Shown in pieces: positions 1 to 7,046 of a DNA stretch of 7,046 nucleotides. The stretch is from a virus (taxonomy: Duplodnaviria; Heunggongvirae; Uroviricota; Caudoviricetes): IMG/VR virus record IMGVR_UViG_2619619133_000005, positions 1 through 7,046 of that record. The stretch is one strand, 5' to 3'. A program made the translations under genes and the position numbers. The notes under the pieces are model-generated. The model saw nothing but the letters and a program-made list of their open reading frames with translations. It ran no database searches and was not told the origin of the DNA. Within the stretch, counting starts at the first letter, position 1, and each line of letters opens with the position of its first letter.

Positions 1-537
1 ATGGAACCCCTTCGTGAAATAAGAAATCGGCTGCTTAACGGCTGGCAATTATCAAAAATGCATACTTTTGAAGTGGCTGCCAGGCATCAGTCCTTCGCCC
101 TGGCGGCAGAGGAATTGTCGCTGAGCCCCAGTGCGGTAAGTCACCGTATCAATCAGCTGGAAGAAGAATTGGGCATTCAGTTGTTTGTTCGTTCCCATCG
201 CAAAGTGGAATTAACGCACGAGGGGAAACGTGTTTATTGGGCGCTAAAATCGTCGCTGGATACCCTGAACCAGGAAATTCTTGATATCAAAAATCAGGAG
301 TTATCGGGAACGTTAACTCTGTATTCCCGGCCCTCTATCGCCCAATGCTGGTTGGTGCCCGCATTAGGTGACTTTACACGCCGGTATCTAACAGTAAAAG
401 CCGCCGGGGTATGGGCGGGGGGCATTGAAACACCTTCGGTGGAAACTCCATCGGAAGGCTCTAAATTTTTTGGTTTTGACATGGATAACGAATTCATCAG
501 TGGTTTTGATGTAGGGGCATGGGGAGTATTACTCTGA
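1..537 (+). pseudogene. dsdC: LysR-family transcriptional regulator, N-terminal fragment (DsdC-like D-serine deaminase activator), fused to phage-derived sequence
   Basis: The ORF begins at nt 1 and carries a typical LysR HTH (…HTFEVAARHQSFALAAEELSLSPSAVSHRINQLEEELGIQLFVRSHRKVELT…) plus the start of an effector domain (…LTLYSRPSIAQCWLVPALGDFTRRY). It is only 178 aa against roughly 300 for a LysR protein, and the last ~50 codons (LTVKAAGVWAGG…) do not look LysR-like. The junction is therefore near nt ~380. The dsdC name rests on my recollection of the protein and on its position near a P4-type integrase; it is unverified. Confidence 0.6.
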
Positions 538-1265
538 TGGCGAAAAATGACTTTAAAGCGTTTGCAACTGATCGAAATGCCAATGTTATGTCGCAGGAGG
601 AATGGGAAGCGTTGCCTGCGCTTATATCCGGATTTACAGCAGGGAAAGCATCCAGTGCGCAAGTCAATAAGGTTATTCGGCAGGCCAGCTTTATTGCTGC
701 AGCTCTGGCCCAGTTTGTAAGTGATAAAACGCAACGGGATGTGCTTGATAATGGTGATCTGCCCGGTTTTGTTGAATTGCTGGGATCGGGGTTTGCTGTT
801 GAATACCTGAGCCGCAAGAATCCGTTTGGTGATATCAAATCGGATGGCACGGTGAAAACAGCTCTCGAAAACCTTGGTTTGGGAGAAGCGGCAACGAGGA
901 ACGTCGGAACGGATACCGGGCAAGTACCAGATATGAGTAGTTTTACAACGGGGCACTCTGGAGCAGCAGACTGGCCGATTCCTAAATCTGGATGGAGTAA
1001 GGGGCCGGATGGGGTAATTACACAATGGGGTATTTTCGGTTTCCCCGTTGGACAGACAGGGACGAATGTTGTTTTCCCGCTACCTTTCCCCGCGCGGGTC
1101 GAATCAATTACACTGACAATGGCAGATATCCAGGAGTCTCTGCTTTCTCCAGCAACCATGCCTGCTTATGGAGTTAACTCAACTGGTACTTCAAGAACGG
1201 GTTTTACAGCCCGTATGTCAGGCGCCGGTGGGTTTAATCTTTGCTATATAGCGAAAGGGAGATAA
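519..1265 (+). CDS. Phage tail fibre protein, C-terminal portion (short constant region plus variable cassette A)
   Basis: 248-aa ORF whose frame is open from nt 510. It contains the left crossover site inside the codons for ALENLGLGE. Its stop (1263-1265) is followed 4 nt later by a tail-fibre-assembly gene with a GGGAGA ribosome-binding site. No further fibre N-terminus or other structural genes lie upstream. Confidence 0.6.
862..887. repeat. Left 26-bp crossover site for a Pin/Gin/Hin-family invertase (gix/hix/pix-like)
   Basis: CTCTCGAAAACC-TT-GGTTTGGGAGAA has the 12-2-12 architecture and AAACC/GGTTT half-site cores typical of gix/hix sites. Its inner half is a perfect inverted repeat of the inner half of the right site at 2740-2765. 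Confidence 0.6.
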
Positions 1266-1269
1266 CAGA

Positions 1270-1713
1270 ATGAATAAAGTTAAAAGTGTTTACAGCCCGT
1301 CCGAAAATGCAATCTACAACGCAGCGCTATATGAAAGTTATATCAAGGAGGGGACATGGCCGCAGGATGGTATTGAAATCAGCGATGAGGATGCTGTCAG
1401 ATTTAATGGGGGAAATAAGCCAACAGGAAAAATGCTGGGAATGGTTTCAGGGACCCTTGCATGGGTTGATGAGCCGCCGCTTTCACCAGAACAGAAAATA
1501 TCAGATGCAGAAAACATGAAAGCCACATTTCGTGCAAAAGCTGACAGTGAAATATCCTGGCGTCAGGATGCTGTTGATGCTGGTATCGCAACTGATGAAG
1601 AAACTTCAACTCTCACCCAATGGAAGAAATACCGTGTGCTGCTGATGCGTGTTGATACGTCAACAGCACCCGATATTGAATGGCCTACGCCTCCGGCAGC
1701 TCAGGCCAGATGA
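1270..1713 (+). CDS. Tail fibre assembly (chaperone) protein, cognate to cassette A
   Basis: 147 aa, ATG 4 nt after the fibre stop codon, with a GGGAGA ribosome-binding site. The C-terminus (…DTSTAPDIEWPTPP…) is of the type seen in Tfa/Mu U/P2 G chaperones. Confidence 0.7.
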   Translation: MNKVKSVYSPSENAIYNAALYESYIKEGTWPQDGIEISDEDAVRFNGGNKPTGKMLGMVSGTLAWVDEPPLSPEQKISDAENMKATFRAKADSEISWRQDAVDAGIATDEETSTLTQWKKYRVLLMRVDTSTAPDIEWPTPPAAQAR

Positions 1714-2287
1714 CATCAGGCGCGGTGCTGGTATCTGTTGCCGTCACCGCGTCAATGTAATCCAGCACGACGTTAAGTCGGGTTGTTTCTGCCTGCGTCA
1801 GTTTCCGCCCGGCCTGTAATTTCAGCTGAATCAGACTAATGGAAGCCATTGCTGCATCAATCAGTGACTGGCGCTGTGCTTCTGCCGCGTCTACTGCGGC
1901 ACTGTGTTGTGCCTCAGTGTCTGTCACCCATTTCTCACCATCCCATTTATCGTATGGCGTTAACGGGGCGATAGTGGTTGTATTTTCGGGGTAATCACCC
2001 GGAGTTGTGATTTCTTTGGCGTCTCCCGTTTCGGTGTTATAGACGATTTCACCGCGATGGTCTGGCACATATTCCCATGAGTTTAAATCTGCCGAACGGC
2101 AGATTGCATAACCAGCCTTATGTATACCAGGTTCATCCAGACAGGAATATGCCGGGATACCAACACCAACGGCAAGATATTCATTTGAAGTGGAAATATA
2201 TTCCCGAGTTTCACCATCATAGCTATAGACGGTAATATTCCCCGCCTTCGTGGCAATAAGCTCGCTATTTAATACAGCGTTATCCAT
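1685..2287 (-). CDS. Tail fibre assembly (chaperone) protein, cognate to cassette B
   Basis: 200 aa on the minus strand with the same C-terminal motif (…DTSTAPDVIWPELPEA). Its ATG overlaps the stop of the upstream cassette-B ORF by 1 nt (TAATG), suggesting translational coupling. Its 3' end overlaps the converging tfa gene by 29 nt. Confidence 0.7.
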   Translation of the reverse strand: MDNAVLNSELIATKAGNITVYSYDGETREYISTSNEYLAVGVGIPAYSCLDEPGIHKAGYAICRSADLNSWEYVPDHRGEIVYNTETGDAKEITTPGDYPENTTTIAPLTPYDKWDGEKWVTDTEAQHSAAVDAAEAQRQSLIDAAMASISLIQLKLQAGRKLTQAETTRLNVVLDYIDAVTATDTSTAPDVIWPELPEA

Positions 2288-2793
2288 TATGCAGCCCTCA
2301 CGATAAAGTTAAATGCAATATTTCGCGCACGTGTTTCCGTTGATGTTCTGGCAACACGTGATGCATCAAAATAATAATTCGCCTGTTTATATGTACCACC
2401 TGTCGCAATTGATGCGAGATTTGGTGTCAATGTTGAAGAGGTAAATGCGCCGACAGTATTATTATTTGGCCCCGTGGTCATATCCAAAAAGCTACCTGTA
2501 ATATTTTGCAGCGTATCGCTCTGAGCACTCAATAACGCTCGCCCACTGTCCACTCCACGCCCATCATCCCAGCCACGAATAAACTCACCACGTAAATCAG
2601 GCAATTTATTTGTCGGGTAAGCCTTTGCCAGCTCCGGGTATTCTTCAGCAGAAAAAGCTGCACCATTGCATTTCAACCAGCCTGTCGGTGGTGTAGCTGA
2701 AGGCCACGGAACAGGCACACCAACCGGTAATGCAGAGCCTTCTCCCAAACCAACGTTTATGAAAATGCAGAAATAACGATCAAATGGCATCAT
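2287..2793 (-). CDS. Alternative tail-fibre C-terminal variable cassette B (silent in this orientation)
   Basis: The minus-strand ORF encodes …INVGLGEGSALPVGVPVPWPSATPPTGW…NIAFNFIVRAA, a typical fibre distal-tip sequence. The GLGE codons coincide with the right crossover site, so genuine coding is about 2290-2753. The leading MMPFDRYFCIF… is read-through of sequence outside the segment and has no convincing start signal. Confidence 0.55.
   Translation of the reverse strand: MMPFDRYFCIFINVGLGEGSALPVGVPVPWPSATPPTGWLKCNGAAFSAEEYPELAKAYPTNKLPDLRGEFIRGWDDGRGVDSGRALLSAQSDTLQNITGSFLDMTTGPNNNTVGAFTSSTLTPNLASIATGGTYKQANYYFDASRVARTSTETRARNIAFNFIVRAA
2740..2765. repeat. Right 26-bp crossover site for the invertase
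   Basis: TTCTCCCAAACC-AA-CGTTTATGAAAA. Its reverse complement shares 19 of the 20 inner positions with the left site. It sits about 55 bp upstream of the invertase start codon. Confidence 0.6.
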
Positions 2794-2819
2794 TCCTGCT
2801 TTTGTCAGGGAGATCTACC

Positions 2820-3374
2820 ATGCTTATTGGCTATGTACGTGTGTCAACAAATGACCAGAACACAGATCTACAACGTAATGCGCTGAACTGTGCAGGATGC
2901 GAGCTTATTTTTGAAGACAAGATAAGCGGTACAAAGTCCGAAAGGCCGGGACTGAAAAAACTGCTCAGGACATTATCGGCAGGTGACACTCTGGTCGTCT
3001 GGAAGCTGGATCGGCTGGGGCGTAGTATGCGGCATCTTGTCGTGCTGGTGGAGGAGTTGCGCGAACGAGGCATCAACTTTCGTAGTCTGACGGATTCAAT
3101 TGATACCAGCACACCAATGGGACGCTTTTTCTTTCATGTGATGGGTGCCCTGGCTGAAATGGAGCGTGAACTGATTGTTGAACGAACAAAAGTTGGACTG
3201 GAAGCTGCTCGCGCACAGGGACGAATTGGTGGACGTCGCCCCAAACTTACACCAGAACAATGGGAGCAGGCCGGACGATTAATTGCAGCAGGAATTCCTC
3301 GCCAGAAGGTAGCGATCATCTATGATATTGGTGTATCGACTTTGTATAAGAGGTTTCCAGCCAGGATTATATAA
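2820..3374 (+). CDS. pin: Site-specific DNA invertase, serine recombinase of the Pin/Gin/Hin/Cin family
   Basis: 184 aa starting MLIGYVRVSTNDQNTDLQRNAL…, carrying the catalytic Ser of the resolvase/invertase N-terminal domain and a C-terminal HTH (…GIPRQKVAIIYDIGVSTLYKRFP). A GGGAG ribosome-binding site lies 7 nt upstream of the ATG at 2820. The ORF-track start at 2784 is an artefactual 12-codon extension. Confidence 0.9.
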   Translation: MLIGYVRVSTNDQNTDLQRNALNCAGCELIFEDKISGTKSERPGLKKLLRTLSAGDTLVVWKLDRLGRSMRHLVVLVEELRERGINFRSLTDSIDTSTPMGRFFFHVMGALAEMERELIVERTKVGLEAARAQGRIGGRRPKLTPEQWEQAGRLIAAGIPRQKVAIIYDIGVSTLYKRFPARII

Positions 3375-3411
3375 AACCGCAGACACGCCGTATGCAAGAC
3401 GTGCTGCGGTT
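3375..3411. terminator. Candidate stem-loop terminator between the convergent pin and cargo genes
   Basis: An imperfect ~12-bp stem (AACCGCAGACACG … CGTGCTGCGGTT) starts 1 nt after the pin stop codon. The minus-strand side is followed by a U-rich run (UUUAUAUAAU); the plus-strand side is only weakly U-rich. Confidence 0.3.
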
Positions 3412-3570
3412 GGCTGATGCACTTTCGAGAGTGTATGTATTGAATTATTTCCAGCCGTTACTGATTTTACGTATTTTTTGTATGAGAGGAGTTGCACCAC
3501 CTCTTAAGCATAATTTGTTAGAATCATGGCAGCACAATAGCCATATATCCAATATAAAATACTTAACCTT

Positions 3571-4470
3571 CTAATCATTATGGAGTATTTGATCGCCGTA
3601 TGGCCAGCCATTTTCCCCAGGAAGGGTCATACCTAACATTGGCATAATACTAAGTTGTCCAATGGTAAATCCTAGAGCACTTGTATTACTGATTCCGGCA
3701 TAGGTCATATCAAGGGGGTTAGACTCTGAGCTGGACATAAAAAGATTTCTTGTGCCAATTCTATTCGCCATTGAGAACTGAATATGCCCACCAATTGTAT
3801 TTACGGTGTCCTGAGATATCCAGTTGTTTAACGCGATAAATGGCGCCCGCCACCAGTTAAGCGTGCCATTCTCAAAACGCCCCCTCGTCATCTCAATATC
3901 TTCCCGAAACTGCTGCTTTCTGTCTCCCAAGACTACCGGGGTACCTGTTGTCAGGTCAAGGCAGTCCTCAATTACAAGATTAGTGGGGTTTGATGGGGTG
4001 TTGTAGATCTTAATGATTTTATGTACCTGTGTTCTGAAACAGAATCCGTAAATAATCATCTCCGTTGCTACAGAACGGGGAAAAAACTGGCCAATATCCA
4101 GTATAAATTTTTCCGCGATTCCCTTTGTTAAAACTGCAATTTCATAAAGACTCGGGTAACTATCATAAGTCAACTCCGGCTGCTGAACATCATAATAATT
4201 AACTTCATGTAATGAAGATAATGATACGGCAAGTAACTCCTTCACATTTATACCGATCATTGTTCCTCCTGCAAAGCCGAAACCAAACTCCATAATTTTT
4301 TCCGGAGATAGACGGTATATGTCATTGGAGCGAATAACTGATACCGGAATCGAGAATAGTTTAGGACAGTGATTTGTCATTACACTTTCATGCTGGGTGA
4401 TTCTTGAGTCGCTTACGGCCCAGATACTTTCCCCTTCTTCCCTGTTTAGCCAGCAGGCTATTGCTGTCAT
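3571..4470 (-). CDS. Hypothetical cargo protein, 299 aa, with possible N-terminal-nucleophile (HslV/proteasome-beta-like) hydrolase motifs
   Basis: The start is set at the internal Met (MTAIACWLN…) because a GGGGG ribosome-binding site lies 6 nt upstream; the ORF-track start at 4608 is a 46-codon extension. Motifs seen by eye against my recollection of HslV: Thr directly after Met, AVSDSRIT (HslV IAGDGQAT), SVM…K with Asp-to-Lys spacing of 16, GFAGGT (identical to HslV), and TTGTPVV (HslV ITGNGDVV). The protein has large insertions relative to HslV. Confidence 0.6.
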   Translation of the reverse strand: MTAIACWLNREEGESIWAVSDSRITQHESVMTNHCPKLFSIPVSVIRSNDIYRLSPEKIMEFGFGFAGGTMIGINVKELLAVSLSSLHEVNYYDVQQPELTYDSYPSLYEIAVLTKGIAEKFILDIGQFFPRSVATEMIIYGFCFRTQVHKIIKIYNTPSNPTNLVIEDCLDLTTGTPVVLGDRKQQFREDIEMTRGRFENGTLNWWRAPFIALNNWISQDTVNTIGGHIQFSMANRIGTRNLFMSSSESNPLDMTYAGISNTSALGFTIGQLSIMPMLGMTLPGENGWPYGDQILHND

Positions 4471-4871
4471 TGAAAACCCCCTTTTAAGTAAAAAAATCAG
4501 ATTCAGATAGTGCATACATAATTTAGTCAAGTCATCTCTTTTAAGACGCATTGAGAAATGGTTGCTCAAGGTGCGCCAGTGAACGCGCACGAAAATAACT
4601 TCTTGCATTTCCCATTACACTCTGACTTTAGGGCCGCGTTAGATTTTAACATGGTGGCCGTGCATCCATTTAAATTGGTAATCTGGAGAATGAGTAACGC
4701 TGAATAGATTAACAATCTATGCGACTAACGGCCCTTAAAAGCGCAGCTCATAACATCGAATTTTACCAGTTTAGTCATTTTTAAAAAGTGCCCGAAAAAT
4801 GTTGTCCACGATTTGTGCTCTACGTCCCATCTTGACCTACTCCCTGATAATTCACTCAGAAGGCGGTTAGC

Positions 4872-4901
4872 AATGTCCGTTAAGTGCTCACAACGGACAT
4901 T
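4872..4901. promoter_or_regulatory. Perfect 10-bp inverted repeat with 10-nt spacer (AATGTCCGTT-N10-AACGGACATT) in the long intergenic region
   Basis: Seen directly in the sequence. It has no U-tract on either strand, so it is not a canonical intrinsic terminator. It may be a protein-binding palindrome or an RNA stem. Confidence 0.25.
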
Positions 4902-4951
4902 CAGCCCACTAAATCCGACCGTGTCGCTCAATATGCGGACAGGTTGTAGTG

Positions 4952-5554
4952 CTAACTGCATTGTAGCTGTGAGATTTCACCATCGATGGCTTCTATAACC
5001 TGTTTATAGCGGAGCATGACCTCATCATGAATCATCATTAATCCGCGGCCGTACTCTGTGGCTAGGATTGTGTATCTTTTCAGGTGTGCAAGATGTTCTT
5101 TGTTGCCAGTAATGTCACTTGCAACCTGCGTGGAGTCCAGCCGTTCGATAAGCGCATTATTGCCGCGATAGGAATCAATTAGGCTTCTTGCGCTTGTATA
5201 AAAAGCCACAATTTTTGAGAGTGTTTCTCTATGAACTTCAGGTAGGGATGCCGAGTTGGCTTCATAGAACGTGAAGTAGTTTTGAGTAATGGGGAAAATG
5301 TTATCGAACGGTGAGTTCCGGTCGTATTTTTCGATTTCTTCTGCCATTCTGGCCTGATACAGTTTAATCAGTGAGTCTATTTCCTCTCTGACACCCAATA
5401 GCGTTGTTATACGCTTCTCTCTGGCCGCTGTTGCCTGCTGTTTTGCCTGCTGTTTCACCTGAGTTGTCACTCCTATCATCGTGAAACAGCCACCTAAAAG
5501 AGCTGCTAAAAATGCGGAGATGAGATCTGAATATTCGTGCCAGAAGGTTAGCAT
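4952..5554 (-). CDS. Hypothetical cargo protein, 200 aa, with one N-terminal transmembrane helix and a helical, charged soluble domain
   Basis: The ORF has a hydrophobic N-terminal segment (DLISAFLAALLGGCFTMIGVTT), then a Q/K-rich linker and a helical-looking domain. It sits on the same strand as, and upstream of, the HslV-like gene. The ribosome-binding site is weak (GGAA). Confidence 0.55.
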   Translation of the reverse strand: MLTFWHEYSDLISAFLAALLGGCFTMIGVTTQVKQQAKQQATAAREKRITTLLGVREEIDSLIKLYQARMAEEIEKYDRNSPFDNIFPITQNYFTFYEANSASLPEVHRETLSKIVAFYTSARSLIDSYRGNNALIERLDSTQVASDITGNKEHLAHLKRYTILATEYGRGLMMIHDEVMLRYKQVIEAIDGEISQLQCS

Positions 5555-5570
5555 GGCGAAAATTCCATTG

Positions 5571-5593
5571 GGTTAAATTATGTCTATTTAACC
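5571..5593. promoter_or_regulatory. Operator-like palindrome (GGTTAAAT-N7-ATTTAACC) 17-40 bp upstream of the membrane-protein gene start
   Basis: A perfect 8-bp inverted repeat seen directly, overlapped by a second partial palindrome (AATTATGT/ACATAATg). Its position suits a repressor-binding site in the promoter region of the cargo gene. Confidence 0.25.
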
Positions 5594-5888
5594 ACATAAT
5601 GATACGAAGATACCTTCCAAAATGTTGCTATGACCCCATCTGTTGTTGCCTGGCTGGTGACGTGTCTGGGTATTAGCACCGTGCTCTCTCATTATCTAAG
5701 TCTGGGCCAATCCTCGTTCATAACAGGCATTCACTTCAGTCATGGCAGAAAGGTATGCATGCTGGAGAAGTCATGAAAGAAAAGAAGACTTCTGCCTCGT
5801 TTGTCATCACTGTTATCTTCTCATTGATTATGCAGGTCATAGTGGGGACACACAAAGCTTTGTACTATCCGATAGTGGTTAAGGTGGA

Positions 5889-7046
5889 TCACTCCCCCTT
5901 TTCATCAAGCCAATCCGCCCACCACTGCATCATTTCTCTGCGCTTATCGAGATACTGAGCATGGTTGTAAATACCGCGCACAGATCCGCCGTTGGCATGT
6001 GCCAGTTGCACTTCAATAGCGTCAGCAGGCCATTCGTGCTCGTTCATAATCGTGCTGAATTCATGCCTGAATCCGTGACCGCTTTCCAGACCCTCATAGC
6101 CGATTTGTTTGATCACAAGTAGCACCGCGTTCTCGCAAATTGGCTTCTTCTTATCGTTGCGCCCGGAAAAAACAAACTCTGATACTGGTTTAGTGATTGA
6201 GCTTAGTGTAGTGAGAAGTTCAACCACCTGGTCTGACATCGGGACCACATGAATTTTGCGTCCCTTCATTACACTGGCGTCGATGGTGATAATCCTGTTT
6301 TCAAAATCGACGTTCTTCCATAGCATGGAGCGAAGCTCTTTCGTTCTTAGGGCTGTGTAGCGCAAAACTTTAGTCGCAATGAGCGATACGATACTTCCTG
6401 AAAATGTTGCCAGTGCTTTATTGAATGCCGGGATCTGGTCTGCAGGAAGAAACGGGAAGTTTTTCTTGCGGTATCCCTTCATGGCGTCAGCAAGGTCAGG
6501 TGCCGGGTTATATTTAGCCCTACCAGTGACAATAGCGTAACGGAAAACCTCGCCGCATCTTCTGCGGGCTTTATTTGCTCGCTCCATTGCACCGCGATCT
6601 TCAAATCTGCGGATTACTTCCAGCAGTTGCATCGGCTCAATCTCCTGAATTTCAAGGCCGCCGATGATAGGTAAAATGTCGTCATCAAACATTTTTGCAA
6701 GTTCAGTCGCATACCCTACTGACCATACTTGCTTCTTGTGCTCGTACCATTCCTTGTAAATCGCACTAAATGAATTGTTGTTAGACGAAGCCTTTTTCGC
6801 CTTTACCGGATCGATGCCAACCGAGATGTCTTTCCTCGCAGTCCATGCCTTATCCCTTGCTTCCTGCAAAGTCATAAGCGGATATTTTCCGACGGTCAGG
6901 ATTTTCTCCTTACCGTCAATCTTGTAGCGAAGCTGCCATACCTTTTTCCCGGATACAGGAACATAAAGGTACAGGCCATTACCATCGAGAAGGCGGTATG
7001 GTTTTTCTTTCGGCTTTGCTGCTTCAATCTGCTTAACGGTGAGCAT
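5889..7046 (-). CDS. intS: Phage integrase, tyrosine recombinase of the P4 type
   Basis: 385-aa ORF starting with the ATG at the window edge. The N-terminus (MLTVKQIEAAKPKEKPYRLLDGNGLYLYVPVSGKKVWQLRYK…) is P4-like, and the C-terminal catalytic region has …GHGFRHEFST… and …RGIYNHAQY (His-x-x-Arg and Tyr nucleophile). The intS name is inferred from length and from proximity to dsdC as at the E. coli argW prophage site; it is unverified. Upstream signals lie outside the window. Confidence 0.85.
   Translation of the reverse strand: MLTVKQIEAAKPKEKPYRLLDGNGLYLYVPVSGKKVWQLRYKIDGKEKILTVGKYPLMTLQEARDKAWTARKDISVGIDPVKAKKASSNNNSFSAIYKEWYEHKKQVWSVGYATELAKMFDDDILPIIGGLEIQEIEPMQLLEVIRRFEDRGAMERANKARRRCGEVFRYAIVTGRAKYNPAPDLADAMKGYRKKNFPFLPADQIPAFNKALATFSGSIVSLIATKVLRYTALRTKELRSMLWKNVDFENRIITIDASVMKGRKIHVVPMSDQVVELLTTLSSITKPVSEFVFSGRNDKKKPICENAVLLVIKQIGYEGLESGHGFRHEFSTIMNEHEWPADAIEVQLAHANGGSVRGIYNHAQYLDKRREMMQWWADWLDEKGE

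Follow-up and report, generated by a model that had tools for sequence, protein, structure and literature searches.

A predicted proteasome-beta-like hydrolase encoded as prophage cargo in Escherichia coli, with relatives beside CBASS operons

Described proteasome relatives and the prophage gene

The closest described counterparts of the protein studied here are the beta subunit of the 20S proteasome (peptidase family T1; Thermoplasma acidophilum PsmB, PDB 1PMA) and the bacterial peptidase HslV (ClpQ). Fuchs, Alva and Lupas (2021; PMC8665760) added 22 new proteasome-like families, none with known function; PPH and AAH are phage-borne, GPH is gammaproteobacterial, and the authors report neither an informative genomic context nor an AAA+ partner. 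The protein in question has 299 residues and is encoded on the minus strand at positions 3571 to 4470 of a 7,046-nucleotide DNA stretch (positions 1 to 7,046 of IMG/VR virus record IMGVR_UViG_2619619133_000005), hereafter the window, which is the end of an Escherichia coli prophage integrated at argW. It starts with MTAIACW and is annotated by PGAP as 'hypothetical protein' (WP_024248228.1). The original prediction, made from the DNA alone, presented it as an HslV-like protein with a threonine nucleophile and as prophage cargo with a defense role, and, knowing of no phage-defense or prophage accessory system built on an HslV-like protease, suggested a new family. The view that phage-linked proteasome homologues are undescribed is outdated by the two phage-borne families of Fuchs et al., which tempers the claim of novelty. 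The 299-residue reading frame with its Met-Thr start was correctly recognized. On balance we favor a modified reading, in which the protein is a propeptide-less, proteasome-beta-like N-terminal nucleophile (Ntn) hydrolase, most likely a threonine protease, that acts in phage-host conflict.

Compared with the 20S beta subunit, the window protein has no propeptide, no accompanying alpha subunit, and no significant sequence similarity. It carries insertions between S3 and S4, H1 and H2, and H3 and H4 together with a tail of about 50 residues, lacks the conserved Ser129, Asp166, and Ser169, and is encoded by a mobile element. It resembles HslV in being bacterial and free of a propeptide, in its Met-Thr start, in an identical GFAGGT segment, and in the 16-residue spacing from Asp to Lys. 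It differs from HslV in size, the latter being a compact subunit of about 175 residues, and the approximately 120 extra residues noticed originally are indeed present as insertions and tail. It also differs in its surroundings, since HslV works together with the AAA+ ATPase HslU and its gene usually adjoins that of HslU. As stated in the original prediction, neither HslU nor any other ATPase is encoded in the window; HslU was also missing from the neighborhoods of 19 loci and of those added later, so that the count of HslU-like partners is zero in about 30 independent neighborhoods, with no AAA+ gene conserved in any of them. Because the similarity to HslV is not significant and the family lacks a conserved ATPase partner, be it HslU or another, we prefer the term 'proteasome-beta-like' to 'HslV-like'. 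The earlier label was too narrow: its part that concerns a proteasome-type Ntn fold with Thr, Asp, and Lys agrees with the predicted structure, and its part that concerns HslV sequence and profile similarity is not supported.

The same comparison bears on the idea that the protein is an HslV-type peptidase that borrows the host HslU or another housekeeping unfoldase for protein degradation. We regard it as very improbable, as 20S beta subunits and Anbu are better structural matches than HslV, the hhalign probability against HslV is 0.3%, no HslV model of NCBIfam or Pfam is matched, the subunit is much longer and interrupted by insertions, and no AAA+ gene is conserved nearby. The favored proteasome-beta-like enzyme would instead work with no dedicated ATPase partner, its activity probably being gated by assembly or substrate access rather than by processing.

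With respect to the families of Fuchs et al., PPH and RPC are devoid of helix H2 and PPH has about 140 residues, whereas the window protein possesses H2 and 299 residues. None of the accessions retrieved for ten clusters of the present family equals a representative in PMC8665760. Whereas no informative context was reported for those families, linkage to CBASS, in which cyclic oligonucleotides serve as antiphage signals, is seen here. The folds of CBASS accessories (Cap2/Cap3 of type II, and CapH/CapP) are unrelated to that of the window protein, and the window copy has no adjacent cyclase or effector. In three loci with relatives (L038, L040, and L016), the gene takes the post-cyclase place that cap2-cap3 hold in capV-dncV-type operons.

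None of the four profile libraries Pfam, NCBIfam, PADLOC, and PHROGs gave a meaningful match for the window protein, for 128 relatives, or for six CBASS-linked relatives. In particular, neither the models of known defense-system proteins (PADLOC v2.0.0) nor, for the window protein and the six CBASS-linked relatives, the PADLOC models of known Cap or CBASS effector families were matched. A full-text literature search found no paper that ties CBASS or phage defense to a proteasome-like, HslV-like, or Ntn protein, and the link between CBASS and a proteasome-like protein appears to be unreported. This, together with the absence of the family from all domain and defense libraries searched, makes it worth experimental follow-up.

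Predicted fold, catalytic positions, and conservation

The AlphaFold2 model of the window protein, computed with a 26-sequence alignment, has a pLDDT of 83.5 and a pTM of 0.86. Its secondary structure elements follow the order S1, S2, S3, S4, H1, H2, S5–S8, H3, H4, S9, and S10, and in the model they form a four-layer alpha-beta-beta-alpha sandwich with strands and helices ordered as in the proteasome. A Foldseek search of the PDB with this model gave 243 matches at E <= 0.001 (best E 4.8e-8, probability 1.0). The top 50 are all 20S proteasome beta subunits, and these and Anbu outscore HslV; the structure prediction and search proposed with the original prediction thus recovered the proteasome beta fold. 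Viral predicted structures of the same fold share about 12% identity.

The model has four additions to the proteasome core, namely a longer S3-S4 hairpin, a lengthened H1-H2 connection (residues 86–107), an additional short helix before H4 (residues 204–207), and the tail. The tip of the extended hairpin (residues 46–57; positions 4300..4335, minus strand) lies between model strands 38–46 and 57–68. It is an insertion relative to both proteasome beta and HslV, and hhalign places a gap opposite to it. The C-terminal extension (residues 248–299; 3574..3729, minus strand) lies beyond the proteasome core and is modeled with pLDDT values of 59–82. It had been described as hydrophobic, which is true to a moderate degree: the top 19-residue Kyte-Doolittle mean is 1.37 (residues 265–283), and no membrane helix is predicted in it.

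These additions bear on whether the predicted Thr-Asp-Lys site serves a non-degradative job, either as a sequence-specific transpeptidase or ligase like connectase, or as an amidase for small molecules such as a nucleotide signal or a protein-nucleobase conjugate. Connectase, a monomeric proteasome homologue, is a ligase with a signature S3-S4 insertion (PMC8665760), and the window protein also has an enlarged S3-S4 element. Its insertions and C-terminal tail might block ring assembly, and CBASS accessories are known to make and break unusual protein conjugates. We nonetheless consider a non-degradative role unlikely, and continue with the threonine protease as the favored activity.

The catalytic positions were mapped by means of the model topology, a family-profile search of all PDB sequences, and hhalign alignment to 14 archaeal beta subunits. 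In the topology, T2 opens S1, D21 ends S2, K37 precedes S3, and G68 ends S4. The broad family profile had only two matches among all PDB sequences, both being Plasmodium proteasome beta6 (E 0.07), and the alignment places AD(21)SR..K(37) on AD17TR..K33. The hhalign alignment to the archaeal beta subunits spans the full length with a probability of 0.5% and an E of 0.11, which is not significant, and its register pairs D21 with Glu17, K37 with K33, and A67-G68 with A46-G47, with G227-G228 falling in the region of S169-G170. The registers of the PDB profile search and of hhalign hence agree at the catalytic positions, which the original prediction had asked to be aligned.

The predicted N-terminal nucleophile is Thr2 (codon 4465..4467, minus strand, as are all codons below). 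Methionine aminopeptidase removes Met1 if residue 2 is Thr, and the HslV chains in the PDB begin at the Thr following Met. In view of this rule and the HslV precedent, Met1 of the window protein would be cleaved off by methionine aminopeptidase to expose Thr2 as the nucleophile, and the Met-Thr start is what a mature chain beginning with Thr1 would need at the sequence level. Asp21 (4408..4410) in the motif AVSD-S-R would be the counterpart of proteasome Asp/Glu17, as it falls on D17 of Plasmodium beta6 and on Glu17 of Thermoplasma beta. Lys37 (4360..4362) in the motif P-K-L-F-x-I would correspond to proteasome Lys33, and the 16-residue distance between the two is shared by the proteasome and HslV. 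Together with Thr2, they would make up the triad. Gly68 in the GFAGGT segment (residues 65–70; 4261..4278) is the likely counterpart of Gly47 and would form the oxyanion hole. Toward the C-terminus, Gly182 (3925..3927) lies at the end of S8 before H3 in the place of the proteasome G-S-G turn, and its equivalence to G128/G130 is suggested by the topology only. Gly227-Gly228 (3787..3792) in the motif T-I-G-G before S9 is aligned to the SASG(G) segment and approximately corresponds to proteasome S169-G170.

The motifs that had first drawn attention to HslV were reexamined in the light of this mapping. AVSDSRIT (residues 18–25), SVM...K37, and GFAGGT are all present, and GFAGGT is the same in the E. 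coli HslV sequences of the PDB. They were said to occur in HslV order and spacing. The order and the Asp-to-Lys distance agree with HslV; the distance from Lys to GFAGGT does not, being 28 residues instead of 12 owing to the longer S3-S4 hairpin. The proposed match of TTGTPVV to HslV ITGNGDVV is probably out of register, as the topology suggests that VVLG182 is S8 before H3 and takes the position of HslV AIGSGG.

A word-indexed search found relatives of the 299-residue protein in 27 clusters. When 1.84 billion representative proteins were searched with a profile, the family grew to 865 clusters at 50% identity. For 518 of these E was < 1e-10, and most of the 865 have a length of 265–300 residues and an alignment beginning at residue 1. 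Across an alignment of 128 diverse relatives the mean column identity is 21%, and only D21, K37, and G182 are invariant; M1, T2, W7, G63, G68, P106, G142, C144, P210, G227, and G228 are conserved in at least 90%. Given that D21 and K37 never vary among these relatives and that T2 and G68 reach at least 90%, the motif matches are not due to chance. Family-wide motifs are MT-x-[IV]-x-x-W, W-A-[VA]-[AS]-D-[ST]-R, K-[IL]-F, G-F-A-[FY]-[AS]-G, and [IV]-G-G-x-[LI]-Q. Among 174 retrieved family proteins, the N-terminus is MT in 146 and MS in 10, and every retrieved member is named 'hypothetical protein' in the databases. The register from the PDB profile search and hhalign, which supplies both candidate triad residues and a Gly47-type oxyanion hole, and the predicted fold lead us to assign the protein to the proteasome-beta-like class with considerable confidence.

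The start of the reading frame matters for this assignment. An alternative ATG at 4608 would give a 345-residue reading. The start at 4470 is favored by a Shine-Dalgarno-like GGGGG read directly from the sequence (4477..4481, minus strand), which lies 7–11 nt 5' of the ATG, by the 299-residue call of PGAP, and by the Met-Thr start of the 146 relatives.

Relatives beside CBASS operons

The relatives with a CBASS context come from other proteobacteria and from metagenomes and share 31–43% identity with the window protein. Genes around them were identified with PADLOC, Pfam, and a local iterative search, and cyclases were detected by a local search seeded from known cases. CBASS genes occur within about 6 kb in 13 of the 17 informative non-enterobacterial locus groups of this clade, a proportion that may be inflated since the patterns of the metagenome scan were partly built from CBASS-linked sequences. 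Among representatives chosen by profile-search rank, and thus blind to context, three of the five informative ones have CBASS within 5 kb.

The gene appears to share an operon with a cyclase of the CD-NTase type, a nucleotidyltransferase resembling cGAS and DncV, in loci L013, L014, L037, L038, L040, and L016, and not in the window. In L013 (Burkholderia), a SMODS and AGS_C cyclase lies 60 bp upstream on the same strand, and in L014 (Pseudomonas) the cyclase is 322 bp upstream, with no known effector family among the neighbors scanned. L016 (Herminiimonas) has a patatin effector and a DncV-like cyclase upstream, and in L037 the cyclase lies 31 bp downstream. In L038 and L040/41, the patatin, cyclase, and target genes follow each other in a row, with a 22-bp spacer carrying a Shine-Dalgarno sequence before the GTG-ACG (Met-Thr) start. 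Other loci have looser arrangements. SMODS is found 1.5 kb upstream in L025/26/52/55 and 2.7 kb downstream in L044. According to precomputed Pfam annotation, L029 has a type II CBASS (HNH-SAVED effector, SMODS, E2/ThiF, and JAB) 2.1 kb upstream on the same strand, and L028 has Cap15 and a cyclase about 1 kb away. L017 has SAVED and SMODS at a distance of 6 kb, in an island that also holds Mrr and HNH genes. L015 and L031 have, within 2–3 kb, a Pfam-confirmed patatin followed by open reading frames (ORFs) that are putative Cap2 and JAB genes by size and sequence motifs, which suggests a type II CBASS. The Psychrobacter and Vreelandella loci showed no CBASS, and neither did the one flank available for each of P0055 and P0059. 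In a rough neighbor-joining tree, the enterobacterial prophage clade is sister to the CBASS-linked lineages.

That many relatives outside Enterobacterales stand beside CBASS operons, several of them apparently co-transcribed with the cyclase, suggests that the family acts in phage-host conflict, a role that we consider somewhat probable. Its protease would cleave either an immune protein, for instance the cyclase, or proteins of the phage. The defense role suggested originally gains support from this close linkage as a possible function. It is also conceivable that the linkage is hitch-hiking in defense islands by an unrelated mobile-element gene, such as a toxin-like or housekeeping protease with no immune role. 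The gene has no fixed place relative to CBASS and is found with many CBASS types, two non-enterobacterial genomes and the whole distant clade show no CBASS, and the lack of informative context for proteasome homologues in Fuchs et al. (PMC8665760) would fit such an explanation. It is opposed by same-strand spacers of 22–60 bp to the cyclase with a Shine-Dalgarno sequence, which point to co-transcription in at least five independent loci, and by the gene directly adjoining the cyclase in L013, L014, and L037. Moreover, we estimate from the published CBASS frequency that well under 1% of random genes would have a cyclase within 5 kb. We therefore give hitch-hiking little credence and retain a role in phage-host conflict as the favored reading.

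Proteolysis already has a place in CBASS signaling. A preprint by Hobbs and Kranzusch (2026; PMC12991175) reports that in clades A, D, and G the CD-NTases become active when a protease cuts an activation loop on their surface, the natural trigger being phage prohead proteases. Activation of cyclases by proteolysis makes an operon-encoded protease plausible as a regulator or activator. Within CBASS operons, the protease may cut the cyclase at its activation loop or its basic C-terminal tail and so arm or restrain signaling; alternatively, it may be a second effector, a killing protease under nucleotide control. The CBASS-operon cyclases carry AGS_C domains, and three operons encode poly-Arg C-terminal tails. 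We tentatively propose, as a possibility that we would not yet lean on, that the family is an unrecognized CBASS component whose gene follows the cyclase where Cap2/Cap3 are otherwise encoded, and that enterobacterial prophages captured cyclase-free copies that act alone, immune or counter-immune. Proteasome-type proteolysis and cGAS-like signaling would thereby be connected in bacterial immunity. On the favored reading, the enterobacterial prophage copies would be stand-alone derivatives of the protease, and the one in E. coli would act on phage or host proteins and benefit the lysogen. If the family members are active threonine proteases wired into CBASS operons, they would add an accessory or effector of a new kind to an immune pathway that is among the most widespread in bacteria, and would be a cell-encoded counterpart to the proteolytic switching-on of CBASS cyclases. 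They would further extend the parallel between bacterial and eukaryotic immunity, so far seen in cGAS-like sensors and ubiquitin-like conjugation, to a proteasome-like protease. As a starting point for such work, the prophage copy in E. coli has the merit of being a small single gene open to genetics.

Apart from the possible inflation of the CBASS proportion, several observations speak against a proteasome-beta-like protease with a CBASS-related role. The window protein has no match to Pfam PF00227, and only one of the 128 relatives reaches E 0.08. The hhalign probabilities are as low as 0.3% against E. coli HslV and 0.5% against archaeal beta subunits, the narrow family profile found nothing relevant among PDB sequences, and profile searches of the kind proposed with the original prediction (here HMMER-type and hhalign) thus gave no significant similarity to HslV or the proteasome. 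The fold is called from a predicted rather than an experimental structure. Of the second-shell residues Ser129, Asp166, and Ser169 none is conserved, the corresponding stretches reading L-G182-D and T-I-G227-G228 with only the glycines kept. As regards context, a distant clade with 23–30% identity is found among unrelated, housekeeping-type genes, and the distance, strand, and CBASS type vary among the linked loci, a pattern that plain defense-island co-location would also give. Finally, no cyclase is encoded in the window or in any of the six enterobacterial contexts, and none lies within 9 kb in the genomic loci identical to the window cassette. As the enterobacterial copies occur without a cyclase, a CBASS-related mechanism may not apply to the window copy. 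Overall, we regard a direct CBASS-related mechanism as doubtful.

Some features of the CBASS-linked loci are of interest on their own. The DncV-like cyclases that precede the gene in L016 (4974-6383), L038 (7563-8978), and L040 (2321-3736) end in poly-Arg (..SRLRRRR or ..LRKRRR), and the C-terminus of the type II cyclase of L029 (2323-3582) reads ..GRLG; the basic tails might serve for docking or as a target of cleavage. In L031, the ORF at 7581-7979 and an overlapping one at 7976-8812 (278 aa) lie between a divergent cluster of patatin, Cap2-like, and JAB-like genes and the protease-like gene, an arrangement that by analogy with CapH/CapP suggests a putative helix-turn-helix regulator with an ImmA/IrrE-type peptidase. 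Very large ORFs are found directly downstream of the gene in L014 (9139-12492, 1,117 aa) and L063 (1146-4631, 1,161 aa), the former without a match in Pfam or PADLOC.

Enterobacterial cargo slots and the surroundings of the window gene

In Enterobacterales, the gene is a solitary cargo of unrelated prophages and islands. The cassette of the window is found unchanged in three places, namely an argW Mu-like prophage, the terminal part of a lambdoid prophage by torT, and plasmid pSM107_MCR; among 5,426 complete E. coli genomes, only 7 have it. Enterobacterial relatives at 45–62% identity occupy further contexts. In a Serratia lambdoid prophage, the relative lies between the recombination genes and the repressor, beside a RelA_SpoT gene; in a Providencia P2-like prophage, it lies between two ogr genes; in a Rahnella P2-like prophage, it is inserted between gpV and gpS on the strand opposite to the late genes; and in a Citrobacter island, it is found with a CbtA/CbeA pair beside a P4-type integrase. 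P0059, a more distant relative with 39% identity to the window protein, is encoded in a P2-like prophage, 23 bp past the integrase. The enterobacterial locations are typical variable cargo slots. The prediction of prophage cargo beside an integrase is thus supported, and the proposed survey of homologue neighborhoods places the relatives in prophage variable slots and defense islands and not in the core genome alone, with the distant clade among housekeeping-type genes. The search of 2.9 million viral contigs recovered only four related loci, and a scan of genome collections with a narrow alignment gave at least eight loci.

These locations bear on whether the prophage copy is a counter-defense gene, that is, a protease captured from a CBASS context that would destroy the host cyclase or effector, or upset its regulation, and so aid replication after induction or in superinfection. 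The family is CBASS-linked elsewhere while its phage-borne enterobacterial clade has no cyclase, and phages carry the anti-CBASS genes Acb1 and Acb2, as cited in PMC12991175, both of which would suit such a function. However, the slots are moron-type, and transcription of the gene runs counter to that of the lytic genes or separately from it, next to the integrase in the window and against the late genes in Rahnella, as is typical of cargo expressed in the lysogen. Relatives also occur in non-phage defense islands beside restriction and toxin genes, and the family has just the above four loci among the viral contigs. Counter-defense is accordingly quite unlikely in our judgment, and a cargo that serves the lysogen in phage-host conflict remains the preferred reading.

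Near the protease-like gene, the RelA_SpoT genes of Serratia (L004, 6330-7421) and Providencia (L006, 16040-16891) are possible toxSAS or CapRel-type genes.

Within the window, the 299-residue gene is a mobile-element cargo in a variable slot between pin (invertase, 2820-3374, plus strand) and intS (integrase, 5889-7046, minus strand). Beside pin lies an invertible tail-fiber segment (869-2758) with two opposed tfa genes and an alternative fiber C-terminus. It is bounded by 20-nt inverted repeats, AAACCTTGGTTTGGGAGAAG, at 869-888 and 2739-2758, which are 95% complementary, and together with pin it looks like a Gin/Pin-type invertible host-range switch. The slot order of invertible tail-fiber segment, pin, cargo, and integrase is the same as that of the e14 cargo, in which mcrA follows pin. 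The mcrA gene encodes an HNH-type restriction endonuclease with demonstrated function, and its protein is unrelated to the one described here.

Upstream of the 299-residue gene on the same minus strand lies ORF200 (4952..5554), encoding a 200-residue protein with an N-terminal membrane helix. A 480-bp AT-rich spacer separates the two genes (4471..4951, minus strand), the GC content being 0.375–0.405 over 4001–4800. No consensus promoter was found on the minus strand of this spacer, and a scan for promoters and terminators gave no more sites than in shuffled sequence. The two genes form one two-gene cassette in three E. coli contexts. ORF200 was considered and rejected as a conserved partner, since it occurs without the 299-residue gene in other E. 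coli and in Serratia, and the gene upstream of the Rahnella homologue is unrelated to it. An all-against-all comparison of neighbors in the 19 loci found no recurring neighbor gene beyond copies of the same element.

ORF200 may be an independent small defense-associated module. Its membrane helix comprises residues 11–29, weak matches to ZorB/MotB models were obtained (E 0.002), and a Serratia protein 91% identical to it directly precedes a HEPN_Toprim_N gene. Where the cassette lies in the lambdoid prophage and on the plasmid (L002 and L003, 7505-8737, minus strand), a 410-residue hypothetical protein is encoded just downstream of the proteasome-like gene. At the other end of the window, positions 1-537 contain the 5' part of dsdC, a LysR-type regulator gene, joined at about 383 to DUF2612/tail-fiber DNA. 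The junction near 383 is found in none of the 5,426 complete E. coli genomes, so that this strain appears to carry a deletion that took most of the argW prophage and truncated dsdC.

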